Source: Schmidtea polychroa
Taxonomy: Eukaryota
Direction: 5' to 3'
NCBI GenBank assembly: GCA_044892525.1
Contig: CM097888.1
Coordinates: 28,520,001-28,584,000, forward strand
Length of the DNA: 64,000 nucleotides
Part shown: positions 29,970-64,000 of the stretch, piece after piece
Layout: each line of letters starts with the position of its first letter
Position numbering within the stretch: position 1 is the stretch's first letter
The notes under the pieces: model-generated
What the model was told of the DNA's origin: nothing
What the model saw: only the letters and a program-made list of their open reading frames with translations
Database searches by the model: none
Program-made: the position numbers and the translations under genes

Positions 29970-29971
<2 letters not shown>

Positions 29972-30050: not shown

Positions 30051-30052
<2 letters not shown>

Positions 30053-38571: not shown

Positions 38572-39563
38572 TGTGACGGAAAGCAGAGCGCAGCAATTAG
38601 TAATCCGTAAACAGCATGCATTTTTGTCGAAAGTATACAACGCGAGAGAGCTATAACACCGAATCCTGCAAGTAGCTTGGACGTGCCAAGCTATCACCTA
38701 TTATCCAGTGGTAATTCAATGGAGGCCACCCCAGCACCTCCAATTGCAATACTCCCCAGCAACCGCAGTACATGTAAGAAAAGTGGCTACATCTACTGCA
38801 AACAGAAACCACTATACGAAGAACTACAGACTGCGACGATAGTGAGCAAAAGCACGGTGGCTACAAAATTTTAATTCTAACCCACTTCCTCATATTTTTG
38901 TACTTACATTAGAAATGTAATCTTCTCATTTTTTGCTCAATTAATCTAACTAAATTTGGACAGGCTCCCCCTTTTATAGTTCAGTCAATTATGTATTGTA
39001 ATGCTAATTTTAATTGTATAAATAATGATAATAAGACTTTATAGCAATTTGTAATGGACCAATTATATTACTATTTCCTGAGCCTTTAACTATTAATTCA
39101 TGAACTTCATACTAGTCTCAATGTTCTATGTGTAAAGTTAAGTCTAAAGAGATTATTCGCTCGTTTCTCTCGGCCTACTAGACGTCTGAAAAACGAACCC
39201 AAAATCACTTTCACTAAATGTAATTAATTAAATTGTTCGTTGCACCGGCATACTAGACTCGATACAGCGAATCCTCAGTTTTGTGTAACGCCCTAGATCT
39301 AATTTACTACCTATTATATAGAGTTGGCTGCAGGCCAGAAAAAGGAAGATGTAGGGTTGGATGGGATCTCGTTCATCTAAAATAAAAGTAGCAATAAACG
39401 AATATCCTAATCAAACTTATATCACAATAATTTATGAGTAATAATAAAAACAAATATATTAAAACCTTTTTGTTAGTTAACTTGTTTGGCAGCCATTTTT
39501 ATGAATTGTTCTTGTTACCTGTCTATTTTTATTGAAAATTTTATTCCTAATGTTGGGGTTACA
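38572..39563 (-). repeat. Candidate 3' LTR (alternative start at 40956)
   Basis: Minus strand starts TGTAAC (39563) and ends GTCACA (38572) and contains TATAAAAGGGG (38978-38968). No second copy in the window to confirm it. Confidence 0.4.
38968..38978 (-). promoter_or_regulatory. TATA-box-like motif in the candidate LTR
   Basis: Minus strand TATAAAAGGGG; ATTAAA about 100 nt downstream (38875-38870). Confidence 0.4.
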
Positions 39564-40087
39564 CCTCGGCTGACCACTCTACCATGTTGACGGGTCTAAG
39601 GGTTGATTGTCCATCTCGAATAAAAGGTGCCACCGATTTGTCAACCTGGAGTGAAACCCCACATAACTTTCTTCCAACATAGTGCCCGTGAATCACTTCA
39701 CGTTGGTACTGCACTATGCAGGCGAGACGCCAGCAAGCAGGTGAGCTTCTGCCTTAAAACTACTCCTTGCTGAGGCCTCGACTTCCCATTCACGACTGCC
39801 GTTAGAAGGGCTTACGTCCATTTCCTTACACAACCACTTATCAGGATTCGCTGAATACAAATTGGGAATTTCTCACTAGATCTGGCGGGTTCTCTACTCA
39901 ACCCACTTAATTAAAGTCTAATTATTCATGAACGAAAACGTGTAAGACAACAAGATTTATTAATTTCAACGTTATGACACAAGGATTCAGCTGTACACTT
40001 TACTAATGTTTGTCGAAAGAAGAGAAAACATCATAATCAACATAGATCGGATCCTTGTTCTTCATCTTGACCGCCACTGGGATTTTA

Positions 40088-40837
40088 TTATTTCTCCCAT
40101 TCAGTGTCGGCGAATAATTCGTCGAGGTTGAAAAACTCGGAAGCGTTCTCTTCCCACATTACGCCAGCGGCTGATATGATTCGCGCTGAGGGTCCCGTTG
40201 TTAGGTCGATGGACACGTGAGAGTTGCCACCGTTGGTTGAGTCCTCTATTGATGGGATGTTTGGCTTGGTAGTGGCGCGTTCGCGCTGTCTCTTCTTGCG
40301 CTCTGCACGAGAGAGTTGTTTTCGCTTGGGTTTGCTTGAAGATGCCACTTGCAGAAGGGTGACTGATACGGATGGACTAGCAGTGGGGGGCTTACTGGTA
40401 CCCGTGATGACAACATCTGGTCGCTTGGGGGACAATTCGGTTTTGACGCAGTCTCGGCACGGTCTCTTGAACGGTGGAGATGGATTCGAGGAAAGGTTGT
40501 GATGAGGCGGAAAGATGTCATCGGCCTCTCGGATGGGAATCTGCACAATTTTTCGGGTCGTAGCCGCCTGCACGTAAACCTTATGCAGTGCTTCGGATTG
40601 TTCTCTGATTAGACTTCTTTGGGCACGGCTCTCAGATATTAGCGCGTCCCGGCAATGCTCGCTACGATCGAGCTTCTTTTGGATCTCCTTCATCCGAGCG
40701 GGACTAAACCATGTCCCTTCCAGCTCGTCGATTTTTCGTTTATATCGACCGATCTGGGCTTGAAGGTCTTTAATCACTGCATTTTTATCTGAGCAGGAGA
40801 AGCAGGGACGTAGAGCTGATTTGTTGTTTGATAACAT
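40088..40837 (-). CDS. 249-aa accessory ORF: CxxC, coiled coil, basic NLS-like stretch, acidic-aromatic C-terminus
   Basis: PCFSC, PCRDC, KPKRKQLSRAERKKRQRER, EFFNLDELFADTEWEK. Strong polypyrimidine acceptor ttttcttctttAG just upstream; AATAAA ~130 nt after the stop. Confidence 0.7.
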   Translation of the reverse strand: MLSNNKSALRPCFSCSDKNAVIKDLQAQIGRYKRKIDELEGTWFSPARMKEIQKKLDRSEHCRDALISESRAQRSLIREQSEALHKVYVQAATTRKIVQIPIREADDIFPPHHNLSSNPSPPFKRPCRDCVKTELSPKRPDVVITGTSKPPTASPSVSVTLLQVASSSKPKRKQLSRAERKKRQRERATTKPNIPSIEDSTNGGNSHVSIDLTTGPSARIISAAGVMWEENASEFFNLDELFADTEWEK

Positions 40838-43800
40838 AATAGATGGCTAAAGAAGAAAACTATGATGACTATATCTAAAAATTTCGGATCAGATATACGT
40901 TTTATTCGCTATTGGATACTTAGTGCTGGAAGAAAACAAGACGAGTCGATGAAACAGGATCCCTCCCTTCTCCCTCGATTACTAATATTTTACGTATCCT
41001 TTACAAAAAATTATTCCTCAACGCCCTGATTGCTTCCCTGACGAATGCAAATTATTTGTAAAAATTTTAATTTTCGTCTATCGCGTTCGAGTTGGATTTC
41101 TATCTATCGCACATAAAGGCAATTTACGGATTTGTTCATGCCGGAGTGAATAAACCTATTTCATTACAAATACACTATACTACACTTCGTTTAAATTTCG
41201 CTGATTATTTGTTGTTATTCTAATGCAAAATAAGGTTATTGGACCAAATGCAACTAGTAAAAAACTTGCACCCCTACCTCAAGTAGCGGAATAAGTAACA
41301 ACTCGTAATTTCGTATAAACTATACGTCACTATTTCATGATTACCCCTTATCCATACCATACGGTGATATCGTCGTAGAAATGTAGCATCGTAAAAATAT
41401 TGTAATTACATAATAATTTGTTATCGGATTTAGTTTTCTATTGCGATACGTAGTTTACATGGAATATGAGAAATTTAAATACAATATTACTAGCTATTTT
41501 ATAACCCAAAAATTCCTGTAGATGCTTTGGTTAATTTAAATTTGGCTCGAAGGCTACTACTATTATTTGTAACATCTAATTAGAATTACGATAAACCTCT
41601 ACAACCCTTAGGTAAAACTTCCTATGGTTTAGTTATAAAGTTTGGTTTGAATTTTCGGTTATTAATTAAAATACCCCTTCAACAATTTCGATTTTTATTT
41701 AGAATATTTAATTTAAGCAAAATTATCTTTAATGAGTGCACTTTAGAGAGTCTCTTATCTTAGTAGTCGGTTACTGGTTATTTGGCTTATCTTTTTAGTG
41801 GTACGAATGACCTTTATCAGTAGTGAAATTTAAGAGTCAGTCATCTGGAAGTCACATCTCATGTCAGCATTATCTAATAGGACCACTGATTACTACTCAC
41901 ACACTAAGAATCCTAGAGAGGGTGACACATGGCGGCATTCCCTGCGGTGAGAGGCATTCGGAATGATTCTGCTGTTTCTCATGCATATTTCTGACCGGAT
42001 GACGCTACTCATAGTTATGTTAGCAGTATGTCTGTATGTATGGGTGCCTATTCGATGGAAATTTTATCTGTAACTATCAACCGTACTGAGCGAACTGCAA
42101 ATGTTACATCGCGTGTCGATTCCCATCTGAGCTTATGATGTTGGATTTATTTACTACGACTCGTAATTTCCTCAATATTGGATGCTTTTGAACGATGGAA
42201 GATCTCTACGAACCAGCCAACTAGACTCTATGAAGCATATTTCAGTAGTGGATATTTCGACGCGACAGCATGAAAATTATTCAATGGGTATTACCAGATT
42301 TTGTTAATATATGTGATTGATTACAGTATTATTGTGGTTTTATGTTTTACTTTTCCTTTATTGTAAATTCCTCCTCATATGCTAAGATTTGGATGTCGCA
42401 TCTGAAAGAGATGACCTAAATTAGATTTACTTTTTCAAAAATCTACCGAATGCAATTTCAACTTCTCGATATGTTAGAAAAACCAGCGATGGATGTTTAA
42501 TGGTATTTTCCCCCACATGGTAAGTTCGGATTTATAGACAGAAGTGGCATGAATGTCTTATAAGACGACTCTGGACAATACAGAGTTAATAGGAGAACTC
42601 CCTCAGTCGCTGTGAAGCACATATCCTATTTTCGAAAATTTCATAAGGTTTCCTTTCGGTCTATATTTCGGTACTCTGACAGATTTTAAGTCCTTCAGCA
42701 ATTGGACCCGTGAAGAAGCCTTCACATTTCGGCCCAATCTAGCTGCGTGATTGAAATACTCCATGTCCACCGGCTGAGCTCCCGAAGGCACCTCATACCA
42801 TGACATGGAGTATCTCAACTCCACGTTACTCGTTAATATTAGAAATCATAAAACTATCACTTCAAAATAAATATCCATAAAAATTATGTAAGAGTTCACC
42901 TGTTACCAATAAATACTTTTAAACATTTAAATTATTTACTTTATCAAAATCGTTATTCAGGATCAAATGAAAAGAGAGTCTGTTTAAATTTAAAAGTTTA
43001 ATTGCTCATTAAATATACACCTTTACTATTAACTTCGAAAAACAATATCATAAATAAAAATCCCTTACTATGGAATTAGGCTGAATCGGAAAATTAACGT
43101 TAGTCGTTCCAAATTAGTCTGATGATGGTTCGTCGAATGTCGATTGCTGTGACTGATTTCGAATTGCTGTGAAGTTTTTCGAATTAACTGTTGCTCTACT
43201 TGTATTGCTGATCCTTGAAATAAGTCTCCGTGAGTTGTAGATGTCTATGAAATGCTCGGGGTTAACAGTAAATTTAATGTTTTTGGTAGTTGTATATATA
43301 TCAAATTCTTATTTGTGCGGACCAATCAGAGTTGAGTACCGCTTATTTCTATTAATTTAATATAATTTTCTTGTTTTTAGGTTGTTTTCTCCTTATTTTC
43401 TTTATTTTTAATATGTTTTTCTATTTATTTCCTTAATTTCCTTATTATTTCTTGAATTCCTCTTTATTTATTTGTCAACTTGTTCTATTTTAATCTTTTC
43501 TTAATTTTATTTTTTGTTTTAATTCTTATGTCTTAATTATTATTTTCCTTATACCTTATTCTATTTTATTTCTGATTTTATTTATTTTATTTTTATTTTT
43601 CTTAATGTTCTACTTCCCTACTTTCTTATTTTTCAACGATTAAATTTTCGACTCAGCCCAACAAATCACTCGGGGACCCATCAAAATTGCGTCCCGCAAT
43701 TGCATAATTAACTTAATTCATTCATTCAAAAAAAAATATAACACGAACACGAAAATTATACAACAATGATAAAATTTTTATTGTAAGATCAAGGTCAAAG

Positions 43801-43888
43801 CAAGATCAAGCAAGTATCACTTAAGGTGATAGTTTGTACATACAATAAAAGTTTCCACATATAATAACACAAATGTTTGAGTTAGAGT

Positions 43889-44557
43889 TTATGAACTGTT
43901 AACCATTGATGCTTCTGCTGGCGGCTGTTGGTTGGTTTGGGTATTGATGTTGAGATAGGTCTGACTATTAGATTTCGGCTGGATTGGTTGATTACTCGGG
44001 GTTCGAGGTCGGAATGGGGATGGGTTAAGATTTGTCAGGGGCACTTCTTGAGGATTTTGGTTCGAGGTTACTCTTATTGATGTCGAGACTCTACATCTAT
44101 TTCGAACTTCGTAAATTTTCATGAATATTGGTAGACATAGGAGGAGGGTTTCTGCGATCACCACATATATGAGATAATGGGTGTCATTGATTTCGGGAGG
44201 TATTTTTGGCTTTTCTACCAGATTTCCAAAATTCTCTTGTTGCATTTGTTGTTCCAACTGGTCGAATTGTTGAATTTGTTCGAGGATTTGTTTGTTTATC
44301 ATTTTACAAATGGGATTCTTTTTACACATTGTTTGGATGTTGTTGATGTGTGATCGGGTTGATTGAAGGGTTTGGATGATATGGGTTTTTACGGTCATCG
44401 GGTATGTGCATTGACTGGATTCTTGTTTAGGTTCTTGATTTTGATTTCGGTAATCTCGTACGATTTTCGGTTGGGCGTCTATTTGTTTGCTCTCCATCAG
44501 AATCATCAATACCATCATTGTTATCATTATCTCGCCTCGCATGATACTATTATACAT
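43889..44557 (-). CDS. Type I membrane protein-like accessory ORF (222 aa; likely start 44542)
   Basis: Signal-like MITMMVLMILMESKQIDA, Q-rich helical ectodomain with 3 Cys, TM YLIYVVIAETLLLCLPIFM, P/Q/N-rich tail. Confidence 0.75.
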   Translation of the reverse strand: MYNSIMRGEIMITMMVLMILMESKQIDAQPKIVRDYRNQNQEPKQESSQCTYPMTVKTHIIQTLQSTRSHINNIQTMCKKNPICKMINKQILEQIQQFDQLEQQMQQENFGNLVEKPKIPPEINDTHYLIYVVIAETLLLCLPIFMKIYEVRNRCRVSTSIRVTSNQNPQEVPLTNLNPSPFRPRTPSNQPIQPKSNSQTYLNINTQTNQQPPAEASMVNSS

Positions 44558-44597
44558 TCATTATGTTTATTTACAATTGGTTTTAATGACCCTTAAT

Positions 44598-45350
44598 TTA
44601 ATGGTTCTGATTTGGATTATTTTCGCCGATTCTCATCAAGGTGGACTCTGCTTTAATTACCCTGTGTCTTAACTCGGGCAGCATTTCCAATTGTCGGTCT
44701 TTTTCACGGGCTTCTCTCTTTAGATGTCTAATTTCCTTTTCCAAGCGTCTAATTTCTTCCCTTTTCTTTTCAAGGTTTCTTTTTAGCTCGATTTGTAGGA
44801 GATCTTGTTCGTTTTCTTGCAGGTAATTTTGTTGTTGATGTTTTCTTTCTATTTCTCTATATTTGCGGACCCACTTCCTCATTTCTTTACTTTCCCGTTG
44901 GTTTTCTTCTAGTTGTCGTTTTAATTTATTTATAGCTGTTTGGCGCTCCTTCGCCTCAGTTTTCCAGTAGTCTTGGATTACCTCCTTTGCTTTGAAGCTT
45001 GCCCTCTCTTTCCATAGTTCTTCCGCTATCTTTTCCCAGTTTTTCCCTCGCTTCCTTTGTTCGTGTAGCCATTCATTTTCCTCTTCCGTTTCTCTTTTTA
45101 TTTCCCCCAACGCTTCGCACTCTTTCTTTAACACCTTTATCATTTTCCGGTCCTCCAGGTATTTGTTTATTAATCTCCCGTTTTCGTATTTCTCTTCCCG
45201 TAACTCGGCCTTTAGCGTTTGTGTTTCTGTTGTTTCTGCCTCAATCTCTCCCTCTTCTACGTCGCTCATAATTTCTATCATTTCCTCGATTTTCATATCT
45301 ATAATATGTACAGTTAATGGTGCGCTATAGTGCGACTTATACGTATACAT
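44598..45350 (-). CDS. Coiled-coil accessory ORF (250 aa; likely start 45296)
   Basis: Continuous E/K/R-rich heptads; co-oriented with the element. Confidence 0.75.
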   Translation of the reverse strand: MYTYKSHYSAPLTVHIIDMKIEEMIEIMSDVEEGEIEAETTETQTLKAELREEKYENGRLINKYLEDRKMIKVLKKECEALGEIKRETEEENEWLHEQRKRGKNWEKIAEELWKERASFKAKEVIQDYWKTEAKERQTAINKLKRQLEENQRESKEMRKWVRKYREIERKHQQQNYLQENEQDLLQIELKRNLEKKREEIRRLEKEIRHLKREAREKDRQLEMLPELRHRVIKAESTLMRIGENNPNQNH

Positions 45351-45464
45351 TGATATAAAATTTAATAGTTTGGGTTACAGTCCCCTGAATACTTTTACAA
45401 TACTTTAATTTTTTTGTTTGGGATATACGTCCCGGTTTTTAGTTTTTCATCTTTTCATCCATCC

Positions 45465-48102: not shown

Positions 48103-48187
48103 TCTATAATTATATGTACAAATAGTTCTTATCGATACAGGTTCGATATTTTATTTACAATTATTTACATTTTGAGCTAGGTTTGGT

Positions 48188-48571
48188 TTAGGGTTCGGAA
48201 GAGTCGGCTTCGTGTCCGCTCTCCTCTCTATTCATTAGCCATTCCGACCAGTCTTCTATTTCTGTCTGTTCTGCTTCCTCCATCATTCGGTCTATTTCAA
48301 TTTCCTGTCGACGGCTATATTGGGTTATCCTCTCTATCTCTCTTTGCATTTGTTCGATTTTTAACCTCTGGTCTTCAATTATCTTCAAATAACTAAATCC
48401 TCTGTTCATACTCTCGATCAGGTTTCTGTGCATCGTCAGTCCTTGTTCTTGCAAATTGGACACTAATTGTGCTAATACGGCACATTGTTGCTTCCATAAT
48501 TCTTCAGTTACTGTATTGTGGTTCATTTCGTTATTTCCTTGATCCATTCCTAATTTATATACACTTTTCAA
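48188..48571 (-). CDS. Small coiled-coil accessory ORF (likely ATG at 48547, ~119 aa)
   Basis: ORF between the polyprotein and TRAF; heptads and an acidic tail. Confidence 0.65.
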   Translation of the reverse strand: MKSVYKLGMDQGNNEMNHNTVTEELWKQQCAVLAQLVSNLQEQGLTMHRNLIESMNRGFSYLKIIEDQRLKIEQMQREIERITQYSRRQEIEIDRMMEEAEQTEIEDWSEWLMNREESGHEADSSEP

Positions 48572-54700: not shown

Positions 54701-57700
54701 TATCTATTGTCCATAATTCATCATCTTTGATCATCTCGTTGGTCACTTTCGGTAATTCTATGTCCATCATTGGGGTCAATCTTCCCAATTTTTCGTTCTC
54801 ATAAATGATTTTGTCTTCCTCTTCGAAATTCGTGATGTTGAGCGGTATCACTCCTTCTTGGTTTATTGTGATTATTTCTCTTGCGAGTGGTAATTCTCGT
54901 CGCTTTTCGAATGACTGGCTTGGTTCAAAGATAACTTCTCCTTCCATACCCGTATCCACTTTTATCTGACAAATCATCTGCGATTTTGCTGGTACTATTA
55001 TTTTTTCTGGACATCTGATGACTGCATTCATTTTGCATATTCTACCGGTTTTGTCTTTTAAACACATGGTTGTTAAGTCAATTACGACTTCTTTTAACAA
55101 TTCTGGCATCAAATCCGTTCCGATTATGCATGGTACGCTAAGTTTTGGTATTACTGCCAAATACGTTTCAATTTCGTTGTCCTGGTATCTCAATGTAGTC
55201 CACCATCTTCCGACCACGTCCACTGTTTCTTTACTACATGCTATGATGTGAATTGTTGTTGATTCGATATCCTTCCAGTGTTTACTGGGGATTTGATTAA
55301 TCGCTATCGCTGATACATTAGCTCCTGTGTCTATCATAGCATTGGTTTCTTGACCATTGATTTGGATCATGACTGTCACTGCTGGACCTCCAGGTAGACT
55401 CATTGCTGCGATTGTTCTTACGTCATCTGCTTGATCTACACTTTTGGTACGTCGTGTTGGCATATAATGCATACCGGGTTGACTCGGTAATTGCGGATAC
55501 ATATTTTGTGTCATGGTCAAAGCTGCTTGTGGTCCCACGATATCCGGTGGTATATAGCTTCCATTGGCGATCCAGGTGTTTGTCTTTTCCTTTTCCCAAT
55601 ATGGTGCCGTTTCCATTGGTTTTTCGTTTGGGTTTCTGTTTGGATAAAGACATTTATCGTTCCCGTTATCATCGTCGTCACTATCGCTGTTAGATGATTG
55701 GCTTCTAAATCGGTCCAAGAATTTTGGCTTATTCTTTTTCAATTGTCGTCTTGTTGCTTCATCGTACATTACTTTCCGGAATCGTCTGCCTACTTCCTCG
55801 TCGGTTCCTTTAATCTTTGTTAATATTTTAATCAATCGCTTTATCCGATGAATGTCTTTTGAGTGACCATGTAATACCATGGTTTTAGCTAAAAATGGTA
55901 AGAAGCCTACTATCATTTTCCAGTTAACTTTCTTTTCCCGCTTGTATATATCAAAACAAGCTAACATTTGTGTTAGTATTACTCTGACTATCTGAATTAT
56001 GAGTATGATCCCTAATATCCCGGCCATCATTTGTCCAAAAACTAAGAATCTTCCCCACATTGCTTTCATCATGTTTGACGTAGCTTGTTGAAAATGGTCT
56101 GGCGATAATAGCAGCTCGTAATTCGGGCCTGATTGATAATTTGTTCCCCCCGTTATTGTAACCATATTTGACAAAATGGATTCTCGTCTGGCTGGAAAGA
56201 GTACGTTAAGTCGTGCTGTTTCTAGGTCTTCTGGGGAATACATACCACCGTTTGACACGTCTATAGGTTTGAAATCCAGCTCTGTGGCGAGTTCTATTAA
56301 TCCAAATTTCTTGGGTTCCTCGGATATGGTTTTTCCCGGTAACATCATCCATTTCCCATCGGGTCTTTCATACAAAGGTCCGTATGCATTAGAACAGTTA
56401 AAGAGATTTGGGTAGAAACCCACTGGATTCATAATTCTAGTGACTGGTTGGACGAATCGATTTTGTCCTTTATAACGGATTTCTAATTCATTTGCACATC
56501 TCTTTTCGGGTAGTATGGATTTTTCTGGCATTCGTGCATACGTCTTGGTACACTGGTATGTGTACATCACTTCTCCTACCATTCTACCAAAGTGTCCATC
56601 TGGTAATGGGAGTGATGGCATCGTGTTATCTGGGTGCGTTATCGCAATAGCTAGCTTTGTTTTCAATATTTCTTTATTCAATGAACAATCGTTTTGTATC
56701 AGATCGTAATATACTTTTTGCAAGGTCGTTTGTCCGCGATGAAATAGAAAATCCATTTTATTATTTGCATATAAGTATAGTTTTACGTCCTCCGTTGCTA
56801 TCTTTCCCACTGCTCTATCGATTATTTGTCTCGACATATAGATGCCTGCGTAATTGGTTTTATATACTATACTGTCACATTTGGTGGTTTCTTTCTCTTT
56901 GATAAATCTCATACCTAGATCTGGATCGTCTGTGATTAATGCTGTTGGTGTCTTCTGCGTTGAAAGTCTCTTTTCTCTGGGAGATGGTGGCATTGGTTTT
57001 CCATTTCGCATTCTCACTCTGTCGTTTCCATCCTCGTCGTTCTCGTTCTCATATATTTCTCCTGTTACTTCATTGAACAAAGCACTTTTTAACAGTTGGA
57101 GTCGGCATTTTTGGGTATTAGCTTCATAGATTATAGTTGATACTCCTGTCCTGCATACGTTTTCTGTAGCTTTACACGCTGGGTTGGTCTTCATTTGGTA
57201 ATTATTTGCGTCAAATTGCGCTTCGTATTCTTTTAATTCGACCGTGTAAGACTCGATCACTACAACTCCCGATATTACCTCGCCTCGGATCGTATACGTC
57301 CCCCCGTTACATGACCCATCTGATGATTTTACTTTTCCGGATACGTAAACACTTTCGGTTTTAATCATTCCAGTTTGTCCGTGAATTGTCACTCCGTTAT
57401 GCATTTTTAGCGCTCCGGTTCTAAATAGCTCTTTACAATCCTCTCGTTGTATTGATACGATTTCTTTATCCAGACCAGGTAGTATAAGAGTCGAATACGA
57501 ATATTGTCCACAGTAATATGCGAGTACCTTTTTTGATACTACGCATTCCCTTGCTTGCGTTCTGATGAAATCTGATTCTTGATATACATGGTAAGTAACT
57601 TTTGTTCTCACGATGTCCAATTTGTTGGGTGAGGCTTGTCTGCATTCTTCTATGTCTCTCAATGAGTATTTATCCCTCATTATCATATTATCACAATCGT

Positions 57701-60700
57701 AGATGGTGAAACCTGTTGCTCCACTTGTGCACAACATCCATATCATCATAGTCATCATTAACGAATTTATTGATGCTTTTCTGCTTGCGGGATCTTTCAT
57801 CGGTAGTTCCCATTCTAGTTCATTTAACAGTTTTTTCAATCTAACTTGCATCGACCTTTCTTGCTCATTTTTCCGTGGCGCTTGTATCAGTCTTTTCCAT
57901 CCTCCGGCACGAATAATATGTGGTTCAATAGTATTCTCTATGATTGAAACGGTCATTTCCACATGATTTGCAAACTGTTTATTTGGTATTTTCCTCGCAG
58001 CTAGTCCCATCAAATTATACATCAAATAAGTGATTACCACTAGGTGATGTTCGTCATCATTTGCATTTGTCGTGAGCTGCTCAATCACTCTCTTTGTTTC
58101 GTCCCAATCCGTTTTGGTGGTTTTCGTTTTCTCTTTGATTAACTTTGGGATTATCCCCGAAATGGTGTGCCATAATTGTCTAGCTTCCGTACTGGCTACT
58201 TTCCGTTGCCACAAACGTCGAAGTTGTGGGTTTGTTATTATTAACATATCTTTTAACAATTCTCGTATCCATTTTTCTCCTCTTTCGATCGTTGGTTGGG
58301 CTTCCTTTAGATCCCATACTATTTTATCCAATTTTTCTAATCGAACTTGCCCTTGTTCTTGCTTTAATTGTTCTTTGGTTTTAAACTCAGACTTTTCTCC
58401 TTGTTTCTTAGGTCTTCCTTTTGCCCGTTTTTCCATCATCGTTCCGGCTTCTCTGGTATTTTCGTAATTCGGATTTCTTTCGTTATCCGTTCTGGGTAAT
58501 GAGCTATCGTTATTTCTTAGCCACTCATTCCATTCATCTATTATTTTATCGGTTTGACCTTCTGGTGTTACTTTCGTTGGTTCTCTTTGCTTCTGGAATT
58601 GTTCATCCGTTTCGGTTTCCGTAGTATTGTCGATGATTTCTTTGATGTTTAGTTTCGTGGGTTGTTGATAACTCGTTGATGGCTGGTTGTTAGTCCACAT
58701 TTCGGCTCCTGTCGGCCATCTCACTAATAGCGGTGATCTTTCTCCTGATTCATCGTCACTATCTTCCAGGATTATCTCTTCAACTTCTTCAGTTTCATTA
58801 GATTTACTTGGTGCTTTGTTCGGACTTGGAGTACTCAAGCTGCCTTTTGTTGGTTTAATAATTTTACTTTTCCTTTTTAACGGTTTCCCCAACGTTTCTG
58901 CCATTGTTAACACATTTGTCTCTTCCAATCTCATGGGTGTTATTCCGACGTCTGCATTATCGTCTAGTGATTTTCCGAATAGTTGCAGATGGAATGGAGT
59001 TTCATATGCTAATTTCTTTTTTAATTCTCTAATTTTTGTTGTTGGATGCACCTCTAGTTCCTCGATGCTCTTGTCCGGATACTTGATTCGGATGTGATAC
59101 CTCTCCTGGGTGTCTTGTGCCCATTCCTGATTTCTCCATTTTCGAATAATTTGTTCTAGCTGTTCTGGATACCATTCATTATATTGCCGGTATTCCTCTA
59201 TTGCCTTTGCCATTCCTCTCAGATTGTGGATATTCTCTGATGTTTTTAAGATGATATTAGCCAACGCTACTACCTGGCGTTTTTGATTTTTCGCTCCCAT
59301 TGCTAAAATATCGCCTAATTGTTTATATCTTTCTTTCTCTTCTCGTTCTCTTGCTTCCGTCGCTTCCTCGCCGTCCATATCAGCATATTCACGTTCCTTT
59401 TTCCTCATTGCATGAATATGTCTCGCTTCATTTTCGCTTTCTGATGTGACATCCGTCTCGCTTTCGTCATCTGATGTCTGTCCCCTTGCTTCCTCTTCAT
59501 ATTCTGGGGGTTCCTCTTCTTCTTCCTCCGATTCACTTTCTGTCTCACCAATGTCTGTTTCTACGAAGATTCCTTTCCGGATTTCCCATTCCTTATTTTC
59601 TGCATTCCACACTCTTTCCCATGGGGTTCGTCTGCAGGATCTGGTATTTAATTTCGTGATTTTTCCTTGTAGCTCTTTTTCTTTTAACCATTGTTGGTGG
59701 ATTTCAATTATTTCTGTAGATTTTTGATACAACGTTTTCATCCGGTCTCGTATTTCTTTTTGATATGTTACATCTCTTGTTCGGAATTCATCCATTGGTA
59801 CTATCCTGATTATCTGATGATTGTCCCACATACCCATTTCGCTTAACGAGGTGTCGTCCTCCGCTCGTAATATTATCTTATCGTACATCATGACTACATC
59901 ATCCACCATACCATCACTACTTTCGCTACGTACCTTTTCCGTTATCTCTTGGTTTATTTTTGATACCAAGTCATCCACTGTACTCTGATTGCTCATTTTT
60001 ATTCGTCGTTTTTCTTCGTTCGGTAACCATATGGTTATTTCCAACCTCTGTGGCTGGGTTTCTTTTAACCTTCCATATTTGTGGATCAAATTTATGGTTC
60101 TCCAATCACTCATTCGGAGCATTTCTGTATCTCGCAACCGGCTCATTAGTTCGTACATGGCTGGGGCTCGTCTGGTGATGAGTAAATCCCAGTTGTCTTC
60201 TACTTGTTCTTGAATTTGTTTGATCAGCTTATCCAGGTTTCGTCTCAGAGTACATTGTTTTATTTGTTCTAATTTCAATTTGATATTAAAATCATATTCT
60301 GCCTTGGCATCTTTAGCCCAATCGTAAATGTTGGCTGGTTGTTTTTCTTTATGCAACTTCAGTATTTGCGTTTCTCCTGGCCATATTAGTGCATCTACTA
60401 AGTGCATATCTGGTTTGATCTGGTCTCCTTGGTATTGATACAGGTATTCTTTCTTTCTCGAACTTCCCAAATGTTCTCGTATCCAATCGAAAAGTTCGTC
60501 GGTGACTGTATTTTTTATCCACATTCTTTCAAGTCCTCTACTCGTTCCAATTTTTATTACATACCGCGTGGTATCGGCCTGCTTCATTTTTTCCATATAA
60601 TTTTTTATAATTGATTTTTCCTCGTTTGGTATTAGATCTTTCTCGTTTCTTTCCAATTTCATCACTTTTTGCACGAATCGCCTGAATGGTATTACGTCGA

Positions 60701-62561
60701 TGAACTCTTGGTTTCTCACTACTACTGGGAGTATTTCGGCTACCTGTTTTATCGCTTCCTCCCTTGCTTTTCTCAACTTTATTTCGATATCTTCGTCTTC
60801 ACTTTCACTGGTTATCTCGTTTCCGCTTTCTTCCTCTTTGATTTCCCCTTTTGGGGGTTCGCTTATTTCATTCGGCTGTAGTATTTCTCCACCCAAACTA
60901 CTTACATAATCTTCTTCTTCGTCTGACGATGCTACATCTTTTGTCCTTTTCATCATATTGATTTGCAAGTTTCTCATCCTTGGTACTCTCTTTAGTTTCT
61001 TTCTTTCGAATATTGTTGTTTCTTCTGATTCTGATTCTTGTAGCATTTGGTGGTTTAGTTGACTGGTTTGTTCCTTGCTCTTGTTATTTTCATCTTCTGT
61101 CTCGGTTTTCGCTTTATTATGTTCTTTTTCGATTTTATCCTTTATCTTTTTCCAGAATATTTTCTGAATTCTCTGGTTTCCTTTTAAAATCGTGGTTGAA
61201 TTCTCTGTTTTCATTTCCGTTGTTATTTCTTTTGCCTTTTCTGGTTCAGTCATGGGTACTACCCTTGGGCTTTTCCCGTAATTGTAGCAATACTGGCTCT
61301 TCATGTCTTTTACTAACTTCATCATATTTATTCGCAATGGTTGTTCTTGTCGTTGTTGGTTGCGTTCTTGTTTTATCCTCTCTTCCTCGGCCTGTAGCCT
61401 TTGCCATTCTTGTACATGTTGATGCACTTCATAATTGTTGAGATTTTCGGTACTCCTCATCATACGTATATTCTGGGTTTGTTGTGGTGCTGATTCTTGT
61501 CTTGGTCTCATCATTTGTTGCATCATCTGTTTCATCTGCGAAATTTCCTGCATAACGTTCATTTGTTTTCCTTCGTTAGGGTTACTTTGTCGTTGCGGAT
61601 TCGCTATATAATTATTATTTCGCTGTGGTGGTCGTTGTTGTTGGCCCCTTTCTCGGCAATCTCTGGAGATGTGACCTGGCTGACCACAGTTAAAACAGCC
61701 TCGCAATTGGCATACATTTTCGGTATGTCCACGCCGTCCGCAACGATTACAATTTGAATTTCTATAACAATCTCTGTCCCAGTGTCCTGGTTTACCGCAT
61801 GTTCGGCACTGCTTGTTATCGTTCATATTTCGCCGATTATTGAAATTGTTCTCATTATTCGGGTTGTTACGATTACCATTATTCCCGTTTGATCGTCCTT
61901 GTGGTGGTTTGAAAATTTGGTGCGCTCCTGGTATAAATTGATTCATTTTCGGTTCTTGATTGTTGTTATCTCCGTTATCCGCTTTCGCTATTGCTGTCGC
62001 TATCCTTCCCTCCTCTTGCATAATATTCATTTGAGCTGGAAGGTGGAGCTCGCATCTTGTAGCCCAATCTATGGCTTCCTCTAATGTTTTGCACATTTGA
62101 CAACCTACTGAGGCTCTTACTTCTTCTCGGCGTAATCCCTCTATGAAATAACCGATCAGATTTTCTTCGGGTAATTTTCCATTCATTGCTTTCTTCGCTA
62201 ATCTCCGCAATTCACTGGCATATAATGTTATCGATTCGTTTGCTCTTTGTTTCCTATTTGCTAGTTCGCCCAACGCCTGGTTGATTGGCTTACTGGCTCC
62301 GAAGGTTTTCTTCAGGAATGTTTTAATATCTTCCCACTTTTCTAATTTCGTGTCTCTCTCTTTAGCTTCTAAATATACCTCTAATGCACTATCGCACAAA
62401 AACAACGGCATCCTTTTACTAATTGCTTCGGGTGTCCATCCACACACGGTGATATAAACTTCAAAATTAGTTATGAACGTTGCTAGCTTGTTTGCATTTC
62501 CGTTGAACGGTTCTCCTCTGAATTTCTCTTTATACTCGTCGGTTTTTGCGACATTCGTCAT
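48708..62561 (-). CDS. 4617-aa Gag-UBLx3-Bcl2-Env-PR-RT-RH-IN-ANK-membrane polyprotein
   Basis: Single uninterrupted frame; domain motifs are listed in the sub-features below. Confidence 0.95.
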   Translation of the reverse strand: MTNVAKTDEYKEKFRGEPFNGNANKLATFITNFEVYITVCGWTPEAISKRMPLFLCDSALEVYLEAKERDTKLEKWEDIKTFLKKTFGASKPINQALGELANRKQRANESITLYASELRRLAKKAMNGKLPEENLIGYFIEGLRREEVRASVGCQMCKTLEEAIDWATRCELHLPAQMNIMQEEGRIATAIAKADNGDNNNQEPKMNQFIPGAHQIFKPPQGRSNGNNGNRNNPNNENNFNNRRNMNDNKQCRTCGKPGHWDRDCYRNSNCNRCGRRGHTENVCQLRGCFNCGQPGHISRDCRERGQQQRPPQRNNNYIANPQRQSNPNEGKQMNVMQEISQMKQMMQQMMRPRQESAPQQTQNIRMMRSTENLNNYEVHQHVQEWQRLQAEEERIKQERNQQRQEQPLRINMMKLVKDMKSQYCYNYGKSPRVVPMTEPEKAKEITTEMKTENSTTILKGNQRIQKIFWKKIKDKIEKEHNKAKTETEDENNKSKEQTSQLNHQMLQESESEETTIFERKKLKRVPRMRNLQINMMKRTKDVASSDEEEDYVSSLGGEILQPNEISEPPKGEIKEEESGNEITSESEDEDIEIKLRKAREEAIKQVAEILPVVVRNQEFIDVIPFRRFVQKVMKLERNEKDLIPNEEKSIIKNYMEKMKQADTTRYVIKIGTSRGLERMWIKNTVTDELFDWIREHLGSSRKKEYLYQYQGDQIKPDMHLVDALIWPGETQILKLHKEKQPANIYDWAKDAKAEYDFNIKLKLEQIKQCTLRRNLDKLIKQIQEQVEDNWDLLITRRAPAMYELMSRLRDTEMLRMSDWRTINLIHKYGRLKETQPQRLEITIWLPNEEKRRIKMSNQSTVDDLVSKINQEITEKVRSESSDGMVDDVVMMYDKIILRAEDDTSLSEMGMWDNHQIIRIVPMDEFRTRDVTYQKEIRDRMKTLYQKSTEIIEIHQQWLKEKELQGKITKLNTRSCRRTPWERVWNAENKEWEIRKGIFVETDIGETESESEEEEEEPPEYEEEARGQTSDDESETDVTSESENEARHIHAMRKKEREYADMDGEEATEAREREEKERYKQLGDILAMGAKNQKRQVVALANIILKTSENIHNLRGMAKAIEEYRQYNEWYPEQLEQIIRKWRNQEWAQDTQERYHIRIKYPDKSIEELEVHPTTKIRELKKKLAYETPFHLQLFGKSLDDNADVGITPMRLEETNVLTMAETLGKPLKRKSKIIKPTKGSLSTPSPNKAPSKSNETEEVEEIILEDSDDESGERSPLLVRWPTGAEMWTNNQPSTSYQQPTKLNIKEIIDNTTETETDEQFQKQREPTKVTPEGQTDKIIDEWNEWLRNNDSSLPRTDNERNPNYENTREAGTMMEKRAKGRPKKQGEKSEFKTKEQLKQEQGQVRLEKLDKIVWDLKEAQPTIERGEKWIRELLKDMLIITNPQLRRLWQRKVASTEARQLWHTISGIIPKLIKEKTKTTKTDWDETKRVIEQLTTNANDDEHHLVVITYLMYNLMGLAARKIPNKQFANHVEMTVSIIENTIEPHIIRAGGWKRLIQAPRKNEQERSMQVRLKKLLNELEWELPMKDPASRKASINSLMMTMMIWMLCTSGATGFTIYDCDNMIMRDKYSLRDIEECRQASPNKLDIVRTKVTYHVYQESDFIRTQARECVVSKKVLAYYCGQYSYSTLILPGLDKEIVSIQREDCKELFRTGALKMHNGVTIHGQTGMIKTESVYVSGKVKSSDGSCNGGTYTIRGEVISGVVVIESYTVELKEYEAQFDANNYQMKTNPACKATENVCRTGVSTIIYEANTQKCRLQLLKSALFNEVTGEIYENENDEDGNDRVRMRNGKPMPPSPREKRLSTQKTPTALITDDPDLGMRFIKEKETTKCDSIVYKTNYAGIYMSRQIIDRAVGKIATEDVKLYLYANNKMDFLFHRGQTTLQKVYYDLIQNDCSLNKEILKTKLAIAITHPDNTMPSLPLPDGHFGRMVGEVMYTYQCTKTYARMPEKSILPEKRCANELEIRYKGQNRFVQPVTRIMNPVGFYPNLFNCSNAYGPLYERPDGKWMMLPGKTISEEPKKFGLIELATELDFKPIDVSNGGMYSPEDLETARLNVLFPARRESILSNMVTITGGTNYQSGPNYELLLSPDHFQQATSNMMKAMWGRFLVFGQMMAGILGIILIIQIVRVILTQMLACFDIYKREKKVNWKMIVGFLPFLAKTMVLHGHSKDIHRIKRLIKILTKIKGTDEEVGRRFRKVMYDEATRRQLKKNKPKFLDRFRSQSSNSDSDDDDNGNDKCLYPNRNPNEKPMETAPYWEKEKTNTWIANGSYIPPDIVGPQAALTMTQNMYPQLPSQPGMHYMPTRRTKSVDQADDVRTIAAMSLPGGPAVTVMIQINGQETNAMIDTGANVSAIAINQIPSKHWKDIESTTIHIIACSKETVDVVGRWWTTLRYQDNEIETYLAVIPKLSVPCIIGTDLMPELLKEVVIDLTTMCLKDKTGRICKMNAVIRCPEKIIVPAKSQMICQIKVDTGMEGEVIFEPSQSFEKRRELPLAREIITINQEGVIPLNITNFEEEDKIIYENEKLGRLTPMMDIELPKVTNEMIKDDELWTIDSMLLTNDEKKKLHRLLVEYKDIFAISDLDLGTGDVTLHAIPLIDETPIALRPYKLAEMQKEIAEAEVQKMLDAKVIEPSCSPWQFPVVMVKKKDGTQRFCIDYRKLNAVTKRDTYPLPDINEMLLMLQGAAYFTSLDLKSGYWQIKVKDEDKEKTAFTLGRDLYQFRKMPFGLTNAPASFQRCMNFVTHGIKQCMVYIDDLLIYSATFEQHLEDIRNVFIRLRQWKLKLKPSKCDWAKEKVTFLGHIVSAKGKEPDPRNIEKIKTCPAPKTVTQVQEFLGLCGYYRKFIKNYAGIAKPIQELVKKDISFIWEKEQQQAFETLRDKLIEAPILVHPDFKKPFLLATDASGYAAGAILGQLDDEGKERVIGYYSRTFKKHEKNYSVTEREALAIIQAIKHFRYLLWGHEICITTDHQPLVWLGQHKEASSRLMRWAMQLQEYSPFIKFKAGRANANADCMSRFIFPDLVDSEMQRICLIVAEDLDFCQLRKDQQEDAELKQIIDYVKTGKTDVYAKDQKLKEHMDKHRHRYIIEKDWLLIMDGEKRLMCIPENRRKELLTQYHDGRLGGHMSSKKTLARMKQKYFWPTLTEDVTEWVKNCLTCATRKNTGSKWKAPLTPMPVPIEPMTMISMDVVGPLPESDKGNVYILVITDFLTKFPEAFAMPDQKAKTIAKILVEEICCRYGTPKQILTDQGTNFMSEIMSEVTNYFKIAKLRTSPYHPQTNGMTERFNGTLIQMLSNYVDRHQRDWDEYINLCLMAYRMSIHASTKMSPFKLMYGRECNMPMDLEYQPPISQYMEIDDYVTKFKERMQEIWETAGLNIKFYQESYKDLHDRKKNVKQHTFQTGDWVMIETPELIPGTTKKLQRNGKGPYEILFVGETNVRVKLVNNPFTRPIYVNVARCKSIPKTATSQPEGRTLTTRSQTYRMNMMQQLAEPITGRLGIQPSEAEKIVKEVKIRIPGWAKDRLDFEILGGLLTMIENYANRERTHPLLRVVKSQWPILFTITDHYGDTPLHKLMKVGNNEQILETIEAFHDCKRSTEQTNNQGYTPLMIAANRGKTKDIITALLDTGSKITTQDHERKNALHHAIEGRSTEAFTSLMELLSYEDNREVGNMYDGLLTAIKEKLTTITGILITWRNPIQNDYMINVNEAFTRGENTLMREAMKGHHLFEIPNQLLERGIKFTNHKDEQLAKGRIDTFEKSLFQFTNQVRNKYWETVSVLYMMDTMNNIRENYLDIIQILTAEERINNPNGKKTKIRYEKSRESKSTTNQTVTNNVIETKSMSIDQEAIIRKAKEVFFEEMLELPDEIILSKIIKAVHTYARDQTTGLDIGKIKTFLPRAFTMVTKDSRTPLQQAILAAKENRAITIVRILGEMGEETNTKNEQGETAMMYAAITKIHPKTLHILHQSGSKLDERSNEGNSTLDWATIQPNLEMIRFICKNATKEEVENMCKNTSQFQWNTVRKNLEAMKLLLTWRVPQNNKYAINVNEFYENGENAMVKNTLTKGGTPKIILVVLNREDLKFTQNQNEQQRIGKHRRMQLRELVKEWNRKRHAATGRKEFEFEAKLARNRVLTAYRRLLNDINVEDDILNDSGGDKHDDNNGKGRKEDKEKREPEEGKPENKDSDTKREGNSPGTKTKEEEKSNNGKQRVCLPFTNKEIETNMILMIIMLTMIELVTAQGGTRTIKETKEAENQDSKEDELKQEKKKQAQEQQWDLKEEWDLKERCILGRCMSRAYQKLVLINEATEPITEVRIQEAYRNRDGKRITNVKGKEVHLGKGGEVVITQLQPRKEHKVCISRLGPGERCHQYVTQQQPPKEYTVCIWRNESKRECRRYPGKRGKKRKNHDEKDEGGKHKKTGEEAQDNYVSEEEMEKIQKMAKEGMNEEIARIREMMKGNGKRRNEKSTEAISTLTNKEKPESISVKQMMWISGIIITGAFLIITGGTIKIIKDKRHRGELEMTRIRNFQHRVKRPSDIKQGQWVEAWNVQRPPNSRI
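50200..51700 (-). other. Two ankyrin-repeat blocks (~51230-51700 and ~50200-50670)
   Basis: GDTPLHKL, GYTPLMIAA, KNALHHAI; RTPLQQAI, GETAMMYAA, GNSTLDWAT. Confidence 0.88.
51990..53100 (-). other. Integrase (HHCC + DDE + C-terminal domain)
   Basis: HDGRLGGH..CLTC; MDVVGPL, TDQGTNF, HPQTNGMTERFN. Confidence 0.97.
53330..54600 (-). other. Reverse transcriptase and RNase H (Ty3/gypsy type)
   Basis: RPYK, SPWQFPVVMVKKKDG..RFCIDYRKLN, LDLKSGYWQI, MPFGLTNAPASFQR, YIDD (54102-54113); TDASG, YSVTEREALAI, TDHQPL, NANADCMSR. Confidence 0.98.
55080..55385 (-). other. Retropepsin aspartic protease
   Basis: AMIDTGANVSAI (D codon at 55331-55329) and CIIGTDLM. Confidence 0.95.
55950..57770 (-). other. 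Signal peptide + chuvirus (Jingchuvirales)-type glycoprotein ectodomain + TM anchor
   Basis: MMTMMIWMLCTSGATG/FTIYDC, CDSIVYKTNY, LYANNKMDF, QNDCSLNK, HFGRMVGEVMYTYQC, CANEL..FVQPVTRI..CS, GMYSPEDL..VLFPARR, MWGRFLVFGQMMAGILGIILII. Confidence 0.8.
57885..58300 (-). other. Bcl-2-like domain
   Basis: IIENTIEPHIIRAGGWKRLI matches BH2 (Bcl-xL YLNDHLEPWIQENGGWDTFV). It is preceded by a hydrophobic helix at BH1/alpha5 spacing, lacking the NWGR signature. Confidence 0.65.
58900..60575 (-). other. Three ubiquitin-like domains (~60345-60575, ~59795-60047, ~58900-59103)
   Basis: Beta-grasp patterns, e.g. YHIRIKYPDKSIEELEVHPTTKIRELKKKL..LQLFGKSLDD; LEITIWLPNEEKRRIKMSNQSTVDDLVSKI..DDTSLSEMGM; YQYQGDQIKPD. 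None ends in GG. Confidence 0.7.
61655..61812 (-). other. Three CCHC zinc knuckles (nucleocapsid)
   Basis: CRTCGKPGHWDRDC, CNRCGRRGHTENVC, CFNCGQPGHISRDC. Confidence 0.97.
62040..62540 (-). other. Gag capsid-like domain
   Basis: EPFNGN..FITNFE..GW..LFLCDSAL..WEDIKTFLKKTF..RKQRANESITLYASELRRLA..FIEGLR..KTLEEAI. Confidence 0.85.
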
Positions 62562-63870
62562 GATTGGTGTTCTAGGTTCGTCTGTTTCTTTTAAATTGTC
62601 TAACGATGTGACTAAACTTTGGGCTGATAATTCTTCGGTTGACGTTGCTAAACTATTAGTGATATCGGACAGACTTTCTCTACTTCGAGATCGACTAGGG
62701 GTATATCCGAGATTTTCTTGGTCAAATATGGGTACTTGATTGGTTCTTCTGGATCCTTGTGATATTCCTCTTTGATGTTTAATGGATCGTCCTCTTTTGA
62801 GTTGTTGTAATTCGTCTCCTGAAAATAATACGTCTCCTGGCTTACTAGAAGATCTAAGATTGGGTTTATCCGTGATTCCTTTCTTACGCTTCTTGGTAAT
62901 TAGCGGCTATTGAATCGGACGCGTTCGGTTCTGATTGTGTTTCCTTCGATAAATATTCTGTATGAATCTGCTACTGAGATCCTGAGGAGATTTACTAATC
63001 CTTGGCAGATGGCTGCTAATACTTCTTCCGTTCTGGAGTCTTCCGGTTGCTGTGTCTCTCGGTGCGGGTTCTGAATGGATTTATCCTTGGTTGATTGTCG
63101 ATTTTCTTCGAATTCCTTTTGTGCAGGTTCTGGATTGTCTTGGTTGGCTGGATTGGCTTGATATCTAAAATGAAAAAATGATCTCGTGTTGCATTTGCTT
63201 ACACGACTTCATCATTCTTTCTACAACATTCAAAAACAGACACCTTTTAGGTTTCTGTTTGTGCTTCCTTTATCTTTTGTGAAATCCTTTCTGCGGGTTA
63301 TAATATCCCATCAGCCCGTATTTTCCGTCGATTTTAAATTATCTATATGGGGTAGTAACAATTATCTATAAAGTCGTAATAATTATCTATTCGTTATCAA
63401 TTATAGTAAAAATAGGTCGTTGTCGGTCTCTGCTTATTACCCCCCTTTCATTTTCCTAATCCTTTTGCGCTGTTGTCGCTATTTTACTTTTCATATTCAC
63501 TATTATTACGCTCGGTTCTACTCTGGAACCAATAAAATGCATTTTCCCGGTTTAACAAAAAAAAATATTCCGTAGAGTTTCTCTACTTCACTGGGATCCC
63601 TTTAATTAGTTAGTTACTTTCCTCTTTACTCATTATCATCATTTCATCTATTCTTTATTTTCTATTGTCTCTTTAATTCGTTTCCTTCTTCCCTTTCCTT
63701 TTTCATTATAATCTTATTTTCTTTTCCACGAGCTCGTTTATTTCCTCTCTAAACTCGAATTTTCAAAATTACATTCAATTTGTTCTAGCTAGCTTTAATA
63801 TTCCATATCAATAGTAATCTAAATATTATCTCATTGTAGCTTAACTGCTATCTCTCGCTTTTCTAGGCCT

Positions 63871-64000
63871 TTACGACTGGCTGGCACTATTCAACAGCTC
63901 AATCTTCTTCCTTCTGATCGGTTGGACTATTCAACAACTCGATCTTACGACTGGCTGGCACTATTCAACAGCTCAATCTTCCTCCTTCCTGATCGGTTGG
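63871..64000. repeat. 74-bp tandem repeat (at least 1.75 copies, truncated by the window end) with an internal subrepeat actattcaaca
   Basis: ttacgactggctggcactattcaacagctcaatctt at 63871 and 63945. Confidence 0.9.

Follow-up and report, generated by a model that had tools for sequence, protein, structure and literature searches.

An intact, very recently inserted giant Ty3/gypsy element of the Burro type was found in the window, a stretch of 64,000 nucleotides of contig CM097888.1 from Schmidtea polychroa. The element probably passes from cell to cell by means of its own fusion glycoprotein, and its cargo (Bcl-2-like, ubiquitin-like, ankyrin, TRAF) probably keeps the producing cell alive; the element is likely still spreading. 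A sequence-only reading of this DNA had implied that the domain set was new, while stating that it could not verify this. However, the architecture and nearly all of the cargo have already been published as planarian Burro, according to the available portion of PMC6431247. We add that purifying selection is strongest on Env, that the primer site is offset by 7 nt and that no purine tract is seen. The family is of interest because its copies are intact and very young and bear a measurable sign that spread requires the fusion protein. It also lends itself to comparison with the Burro1-type family, whose backbone it shares without the IAP. What each cargo gene does, and whether the provirus hypothesis holds, should therefore be easier to test.

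The element measures 30,278 bp on the minus strand, from window position 39551 to 5.8 kb past the window end (Table 1). An internal region of 22,052 bp lies between two LTRs of 4,113 bp each, which show 0 mismatches, TG...CA ends and a terminal inverted repeat. The sequence-only reading had proposed one element of at least 25 kb from 38572; a single intact element was indeed found, but that end was rejected, since the stretch 38572-39550 consists of older repeat DNA of low similarity that flanks the element. One of the ORFs named in that reading (249 aa) lies within the LTR. Ty3/gypsy (Metaviridae) features present include the TG...CA LTRs, a target duplication, CCHC Gag, PR-RT-RH-IN order with catalytic motifs and a tRNA primer site. 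The tRNA-Pro(UGG) primer site lies 7 nt after the 5' LTR and matches the 3' 15 nt of a host tRNA-Pro(tgg) plus CCA at 18/18 positions. A polypurine tract before the 3' LTR is typical of Ty3/gypsy elements, although it is not a formal family criterion. No canonical tract was seen in the 40 nt preceding the 3' LTR, nor does the Burro1-type family have one; the last 20 nt before the LTR were identical in 10/10 copies, and the Burro1-type family has a similar sequence there. The literature searched contained no account of Burro with a primer site and purine tract.

Table 1. Features of the element in 5' to 3' order (window coordinates unless indicated; omega from distinct changes relative to a single copy; further omega values in the text).
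Feature	Position	Strand	Basis or remark
5' LTR, 4,113 bp	contig positions 28585716-28589828 (extended window 65716-69828)	-	beyond window; identical to 3' LTR
Seventh accessory ORF, RING only, 161 aa	L001 2888-3373	-	beyond window, upstream of the window's tandem repeat
Tandem repeat, ~74-bp units, 5' leader	63871..64000	-	runs on past window
ORF1, single polyprotein, 4,617 aa, stop-free 13,854 bp	48708..62561	-	ORF list and Pfam
Gag: retrotrans_gag core and CCHC zinc knuckles	61572..62561	-	Pfam
Unit 1: helical segment and likely ubiquitin-like domain	60339..60767	-	weakest unit, no family match alone
Unit 2: helical segment and likely ubiquitin-like domain	59784..60287	-	profile
Unit 3: four helices and ubiquitin-like beta-grasp domain	58887..59348	-	fold matched
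Bcl-2-like domain (putative)	57870..58343	-	BH2-like motif conserved across families
Env: Monjiviricetes-type fusion glycoprotein, C-terminal membrane anchor	55872..57734	-	Pfam
Aspartyl protease, DTG	55098..55373	-	Pfam and motif
Reverse transcriptase core, YIDD	53958..54434	-	Pfam and motif
RNase H	53382..53771	-	Pfam and motif
Integrase, HHCC and D,D,E motifs	52491..53060	-	Pfam and motif
Two ankyrin-repeat clusters (aa 3642-3721; aa 4019-4058)	50388..51638	-	Pfam E 2e-17
C-terminal second membrane protein: signal-like stretch, Cys-bearing beta-type ectodomain unit, transmembrane helix	48711..49694	-	omega 0.20 (aa 4150-4617)
119-aa ORF	48188..48547	-	homolog in Burro1-type family (32%); omega 0.31
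TRAF, intronless, full-length, 462 aa: RING, Cys-rich zinc-finger region, coiled coil, MATH	46714..48102	-	Pfam
351-aa ORF, charged, coiled-coil-like	45465..46520	-	homolog in Burro1-type family (32%); omega 0.33
250-aa ORF, charged, coiled-coil-like	44598..45350	-	Burro1-type homolog (25%, E 1e-5)
222-aa ORF, N-terminal and internal hydrophobic stretches (by eye)	43889..44557	-	no family match
Expected polypurine-tract position	43664..43703	-	longest purine run 4 nt
3' LTR, 4,113 bp	39551..43663	-	LTR pair comparison
249-aa ORF, inside LTR and thus in both LTRs	40088..40837	-	no family match; omega 0.18
Target-site duplication TTAG, 4 bp	39547..39550	-	same four bases precede 5' LTR

Dozens of copies are dispersed in the genome, and exact LTR-primer junctions numbered 80, compared with 1 in the control. 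In the ten copies sampled, LTR pairs showed 0 differences (eight copies) or a single-base difference (two), while the LTRs differed between copies; 4-bp target duplications were present in nine. All 16 tested modules were present in every sampled copy, and thus the accessory cargo co-occurs with pol, a check that the sequence-only reading had named; the recent insertion agrees with the recent activity inferred there. The sample was drawn from the 40 copies most similar to that of the window and so overstates intactness; even so, 4/10 copies had a tested module interrupted by a frameshift or stop.

The long stop-free frame recognized earlier is ORF1. In its product, Gag is followed by three ubiquitin-like units, the Bcl-2-like domain and the fusion glycoprotein; PR-RT-RH-IN comes next, then the ankyrins, and a second membrane protein lies at the C terminus. 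Pfam matches and catalytic motifs agreed with the canonical Gag/PR/RT/RH/IN set first proposed. Env lies in frame between Gag and Pol and, consistent with the negative-strand-RNA-virus-type glycoprotein described from sequence, matches the Pfam Monjiviricetes fusion glycoprotein (E 2e-70); a PDB sequence search with Env returned nothing.

The other two assignments in the front half were recovered in part. The ubiquitin-like units were weak when searched singly (E 0.016-0.16), and the region alone returned nothing in the PDB sequence search, but a 7-row profile matches ubiquitin/ISG15. The model of unit 3 resembled ubiquitin in fold (Foldseek E 4e-4; VIA Z 10.9, with an rmsd of 1.6 across 70 residues), a match that concerns the ubiquitin-like part, as the searches barely covered the helical part. 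For the Bcl-2-like domain, the Pfam match was weak in the window (E 0.073, below Pfam's cut-off) and reached E 1.5e-5 over the whole model at the same position in a sister family, still below the cut-off. All 60 PDB matches listed for a 4-row profile were Bcl-2-family chains (best E 0.028, BH2 only). The Bcl-2 region alone gave no PDB match by sequence, no usable Atlas match and no relatives among proteins of 2,539-8,080 aa. Single-sequence folding of ORF1 aa 601-1620 yielded a mean pLDDT of 36.5 and no Bcl-2 fold, and this segment had 0 relatives among 1.84 billion representatives. The putative Bcl-2-like assignment holds at motif level only.

Farther along ORF1, the PR-RT spacer is conserved in an alignment that excluded one row (L047, which contains a stop); it had no Pfam match, and its profile had no PDB match. 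A dUTPase-like domain between PR and RT of Burro was called by HHpred in the available portion of PMC6431247. For the C-terminal membrane protein, no family or structure match was found: Atlas gave no usable match, and the C-terminal repeat profile gave none in the PDB.

The six intact ORFs co-oriented with ORF1 that had been reported (119, 462, 351, 250, 222 and 249 aa) were all recovered. The ankyrin repeats and the complete TRAF, RING and MATH included, also stood; the TRAF ORF matches solved TRAF1/2/3 (E 2e-28) and TRAF RING regions in the PDB. The IAP of the sister family matches only the RING of the upstream 161-aa ORF, and its BIR alone had no match, indicating that the window's family is without BIR. 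An AG resembling a splice acceptor precedes 5/7 accessory starts, a count made without a chance control.

Over 641 codons of Env, 4 replacement and 58 silent changes were counted. Transition-corrected omega, based on distinct changes counted against one copy and not on events on a tree, was 0.03 for env and IN, 0.07 for the third ubiquitin-like unit, 0.11 for Bcl-2 and PR-RT-RH, 0.21 for ankyrin and 0.35 for TRAF. Selection was not significant for 3/16 modules (the RING, 250-aa and 222-aa ORFs). These values show that most modules are under amino-acid constraint, with Env as strict as integrase.

In the available portion of PMC6431247, Burro elements exceed 30 kb in total length, with an internal region of up to 25 kb, and carry Gag, MATH_TRAF_C, Ubi/SUMO, BCL2, a mononegavirus-fusion-like env between gag and pol, and ankyrin; they were proposed in 2019 as integrated proviruses meddling with apoptosis and ubiquitination. 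The same portion describes Burro1 / GYPSM1 of Schmidtea mediterranea (Jurka 2007; Grohme 2018). The window's element resembles Burro1 in its length of more than 30 kb, giant ORF, Ubi/SUMO-like before BCL2-like before in-frame env, PR-RT-RH-IN, ankyrins, accessory ORFs and tandem repeats. Unlike in Burro1, its ORF1 has no MATH domain (MATH sits in the separate TRAF ORF), its family has no BIR-IAP ORF, its ankyrin region is longer and its LTR is different. ORF1 comprises 4,617 aa here, compared with 4,873 published for Burro1 and 4,688 by coordinates in the sister family. This sister family, of Burro1 layout and from the same genome, shares 91.5% RT, 81% IN and 59% env identity with the window's family, as well as the primer site and accessory cluster; the two grouped at 100/100 support in a tree of RTs from this genome only. 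Because the comparison with published Burro1-4 was by description only, the window's family may be one of Burro2-4, and the family itself, or its primer site, TRAF or C-terminal protein, may already be described in Grohme 2018, Jurka 2007 or Lee 2026. Like the window's element, a Burro-like element of Dugesia tigrina has an ORF1 without MATH and a TRAF domain in a separate accessory ORF; there the MATH ORF lies upstream and ORF1 has 5,140 aa, whereas here a full RING-to-MATH TRAF lies downstream (available portion of PMC6431247). The BIR+RING IAP of Burro1 (B-IAP) is reported as anti-apoptotic and protective of stem cells (Lee et al. 2026, as cited in the accessible part of PMC13465017). This IAP, absent from the window's family, is the only module with reported functional evidence in the sources as available, and the anti-apoptotic function depends on its BIR. 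Suppression of host cell death and innate signalling, proposed in the sequence-only reading, is therefore a putative role here, and an intact TRAF might drive signalling as well as dampen it.

We propose that the LTR drives genomic RNA and that the element copies itself by reverse transcription and integration. ORF1 would be threaded through the ER membrane, placing Gag-UBL-Bcl2 in the cytosol, Env in the lumen, PR-RT-RH-IN-ankyrin in the cytosol and a second domain in the lumen, and would be cleaved by signal peptidase and the element's own protease; the Env signal peptide would also provide the Bcl-2-like domain with its membrane tail. Translation of the small ORFs would use spliced or subgenomic RNAs. 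Env would carry particles into germ or stem cells, and insertions made there would be inherited. A bolder version, which we put forward only tentatively, is a still-infectious 30-kb endogenous retrovirus-like flatworm agent that would spread between cells by a gB-like fusogen, aided by a second surface protein not described before. It would need no purine tract to prime the plus strand, would prime the minus strand from the 7-nt-offset site, and would rewire host TRAF signalling without the IAP of Burro1.

Rather unlikely, in our judgment, is an active but purely intracellular retrotransposon in which Env is retained because it serves the topology of the polyprotein or the assembly of particles at the ER. 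It draws on the in-frame position of Env, where breaks would be purged whatever Env does, and on the literature searched, which reports no such particles in planarians. However, topology by itself would presumably require just a signal and an anchor, whereas constraint on Env equals that on integrase, and Env is kept in families at 48-51% RT identity. A partly domesticated element, whose survival cargo benefits the host and is selected at host level, would be compatible with cell-to-cell spread but seems quite improbable. The stem-cell protection by B-IAP speaks for it, but the window's family has no BIR, and dispersed, very young copies with selection on IN and RT as well fit selection for spread.

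A chimeric assembly or nested insertions joining unrelated genes can practically be dismissed. Identical LTRs could in principle arise by polishing, and nothing else favors such an origin. Module order and spacing recur in other copies, all ten fetched copies are complete, LTR sequence and flanks are individual to each copy, and the Burro1-layout sister family shares the arrangement. A TRAF match among the best 40 lay 7,397-7,584 bp from pol in 17/40 best pol matches, own copy included. Contigs from three public runs, which may include the source sample, covered 30/30 bins of the element, a result that concerns presence only.

The preferred reading of spread by a fusion glycoprotein has parallels in other env-bearing elements. 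Like the Drosophila gypsy errantivirus, a model of cell-to-cell spread into the germ line, the window's element combines Ty3/gypsy pol with env. Drosophila gypsy has a separate env ORF after pol and an F-type env, and is not known to carry apoptosis or signalling cargo. In the accessible part of PMC13524379, env-bearing gypsy elements are infectious in Drosophila, and the role of env in transmission outside Drosophila is stated as unknown. The flatworm elements Smed_errantivirus_1-6 (HSV/gB-type env) described there share the gag-env-pol order and the gB-like env class with the window's element; no primer tRNA is listed for these six in that part, and the word Burro does not occur. By eye, none of their six env rows, as available, is close to the window's Env; the nearest are 5 and 6, with about half of the residues identical over the first 60 of 5. 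A shorter family in the same genome, L043, appears by eye to be nearly identical to the available sequence of Smed_errantivirus_2.

The minus-strand element is real, intact and young, and is a sister of Burro1. Its second LTR, found in the neighbouring stretch, is identical to the LTR in the window (4,113 bp, 0 mismatches); the LTRs end in TG...CA, and TTAG lies on both outer flanks of the element. On the basis of this identical repeat and the matching flanks, we delimited an element of 30,278 bp, whose internal region measures 22,052 bp. GC content is ~39% over the element versus ~27% in the flank. The sequence-only reading had placed the boundary at 38572; however, 38572-39550 is flank, for which only short matches besides itself were obtained (best 69% over ~400 bp), and a purine run followed by TG may have misled that call. 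An 18-nt primer site begins 7 bases past the 5′ LTR and pairs without mismatch to the 3′-terminal 15 nt plus CCA of a host tRNA-Pro(tgg), whose 3′-arm pattern occurs 2,196 times genome-wide. No polypurine tract was found before the 3′ LTR, the longest purine run within 40 nt being 4 nt. A short inverted repeat ~20 nt ahead of this LTR, possibly a marker of where the plus strand starts, is kept in the Burro1-type family (the family in this genome arranged as published for Burro1).

Coordinates of features in the window (G000:C4:28520001-28584000) and at related loci of the same genome
Feature	Position	Strand	Remark
ORF1	48708-62561	-	stop-free, 4,617 aa
LTR in the window	39551-43663	-	
Inverted repeat TTGCG...CGCAA	43680-43699		
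Insertion site	38450-39550		within older diverged repeat
Purine run then TG	near 38970		in flank
650-aa frame	12296-14248	+	Spin-doc zinc finger, weak hAT dimerisation match
263-bp direct repeats	7283 and 17349		flank the 650-aa frame
36-bp tandem array	24560-25510		open frames on both strands; minus-strand frame lysine/acid-rich
Nested inverted repeats	28289-31981		arms 55-79 bp, 88-96%; enclose ~2.5-3.5 kb with 41-43-bp subrepeats
Env-bearing relative	L048:538-4839		
Two tandem copies	G000:C2:177.68-177.73 Mb (L026-L029)		one common middle LTR
tRNA-Pro(tgg) gene fitting the primer site	G000:C1:130901010 onward (L083)		tandem array, 475-bp period

The giant ORF and six further co-oriented ORFs (119, 462, 351, 250, 222 and 249 aa, the last inside the LTR) were confirmed. 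A seventh accessory ORF, in the 5′ leader, is 161 aa long; it has a RING match (E 3e-11), and no BIR was found in it. Pfam matches along ORF1 run in the order retrotrans_gag, CCHC knuckles, weak Bcl-2, Monjiviricetes fusion glycoprotein, protease (PR), RT, RNase H (RH), integrase (IN) and ankyrin repeats. The proposed Gag/PR/RT/RH/IN set was matched throughout, with the catalytic motifs of all four enzymes present; the glycoprotein of negative-strand-RNA-virus type (E 2e-70) and the ankyrin repeats held as well, and the 462-aa ORF is the predicted TRAF, with RING and MATH, matching solved TRAF1/2/3 C-domains (E 2e-28).

Two further proposals, ubiquitin-like (UBL) and Bcl-2-like domains, stood in part. 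The stretch from Gag to the Bcl-2 region contains three units, each a helical segment plus a UBL part. Family-match scores of single units were E 0.016 or worse; a profile of seven units from three families matched ubiquitin and ISG15. The model of unit 3 (mean pLDDT 68.7) matched ubiquitin-like folds (Foldseek E 3.6e-4; VIA-align Z 10.9, rmsd 1.6, 70 residues). Unit 3 is assigned by predicted fold and the profile; units 1 and 2 are probable UBL units, by alignment. The Bcl-2 match in ORF1 was weak (E 0.073), and this region alone gave no PDB match and no usable structure model. The corresponding position in the sister family matched the whole Pfam Bcl-2 model, under cut-off (E 1.5e-5), and a four-row profile of the region hit Bcl-2-family chains in all of the best 60 of 106 PDB rows (best E 0.028, BH2 stretch). 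We therefore take the region ahead of env as Bcl-2-like at the motif level. At the ORF1 C-terminus, a Cys-bearing unit is preceded by a signal-like stretch and followed by a transmembrane helix. Its alignment to three stretches at the equivalent place in the sister family is loose (14-25%); family and structure searches gave no naming match for this membrane protein.

A 2-kb pol probe returned 883 candidates genome-wide, of which the best 40 were scored (all at least 99% identical), and a TRAF probe returned 363. At least 17 of the best 40 pol matches, own copy included, have one of the best 40 TRAF matches 7,397-7,584 bp away. In ten copies taken from the best 40 pol matches (ranks 2, 6, ... 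38), a sample biased toward young copies, all 16 tested modules were present (10/10; 94-99.8% identity), so the accessory ORFs do co-occur with pol; four of the ten carry a frameshift or stop in at least one module. The two LTRs of a copy are identical in eight cases and one base apart in two. Nine copies have 4-bp TSDs, two of them uninformative within ATT tracts; the tenth has one LTR in common with the copy next to it in tandem. Genome-wide, 80 exact LTR-primer junctions were counted (control, 1). The element had been read as intact, recently active and possibly infectious: it is intact, its insertions are very recent, and it may be infectious. Between copies, LTRs are ~97% identical, or 81% over the first kilobase for a second LTR type; therefore, several source lineages are spreading.

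Most of the cargo is constrained. The replacement/silent ratio (omega) was calculated as a simple count, not tree-based, of distinct single-base codon changes in the ten copies against the window copy, adjusted for transition bias (4.3). It was lowest in env (0.03; 4 replacement, 58 silent) and IN (0.03), followed by UBL3 (0.07), the Bcl-2 region and PR-RT-RH (0.11 each), the LTR ORF (0.18), the ORF1 C-terminus (0.20), ankyrin (0.21), Gag and UBL1-2 (0.25) and the 119-aa, 351-aa and TRAF ORFs (0.31-0.35). Selection was non-significant in this ten-copy count for the RING (0.81), 250-aa (0.48) and 222-aa (0.62) ORFs. Given how little the paired LTRs differ, most of these changes probably predate insertion and arose in replicating lineages.

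The Burro1-type family was reached via a high-copy BIR ORF (309 candidates), and four copies were examined. Its ORF1 reads Gag-unit1-unit2-MATH-unit3-Bcl2-env-PR-RT-RH-IN-ankyrin, followed by a 119-aa homolog, full TRAF, BIR+RING IAP, and 351- and 250-aa homologs. Identity to the window element is 91.5% in RT, 81% in IN and 59% in env; both have an upstream RING ORF, an offset primer site and a purine-poor 3′ junction, and they grouped at 100/100 in a 12-row RT tree of this genome alone. In copies L058, L061, L064 and L067, the full-length TRAF ORF lies directly upstream of the IAP, besides MATH in ORF1; in mammals, TRAFs and IAPs are known partners. Env likewise sits between gag and pol in shorter families whose RT identity is 48-52%. 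In the relative in stretch L048, the protease-region frame runs straight into a signal-like stretch, ectodomain and membrane helix; with no RT match within the stretch, it is likely a deletion derivative retaining the second membrane protein as well as env.

The implied novelty of the domain set did not hold, the set having been in print for Burro since 2019. PMC6431247 describes elements >30 kb with Gag, MATH_TRAF_C, BIR, Ubi/SUMO, BCL2, dUTPase-like and ankyrin domains and an in-frame env between gag and pol matching mononegavirus fusion proteins, and proposes integrated proviruses meddling with apoptosis and ubiquitination. Other papers report six GAG-ENV-POL elements of S. mediterranea whose env is of gB type, stating env-mediated transmission outside Drosophila to be unknown (PMC13524379), raised BURRO1 RNA after smedwi-2 RNAi (PMC8532177) and an anti-apoptotic Burro1 IAP (Lee et al. 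2026, cited in PMC13465017); PMC11410931 and PMC13238120 mention Burro. These likenesses make a Schmidtea-type planarian the likely host. In the Burro and planarian papers cited here by PMC number, we found neither the env selection signal, nor an offset tRNA-Pro site without purine tract, nor the LTR-encoded ORF and second membrane protein.

The element's anatomy equips it for reverse transcription and integration. The ORF1 polyprotein would be threaded through the membrane and cut by host signal peptidase and PR, the env signal peptide doubling as tail anchor of the Bcl-2-like domain. The small ORFs may be read from spliced RNAs; AG occurs within 10 nt of five of seven accessory-ORF starts, a count without chance control. 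Env could carry cell-to-cell spread, and the cargo may act pro-survival. The only thing that speaks for the suggested suppression of innate signalling is that TRAF is present.

Elsewhere in the window, the 650-aa frame between direct repeats is probably a hAT-type DNA transposon, and the nested inverted repeats likely represent a foldback or MITE-like element.
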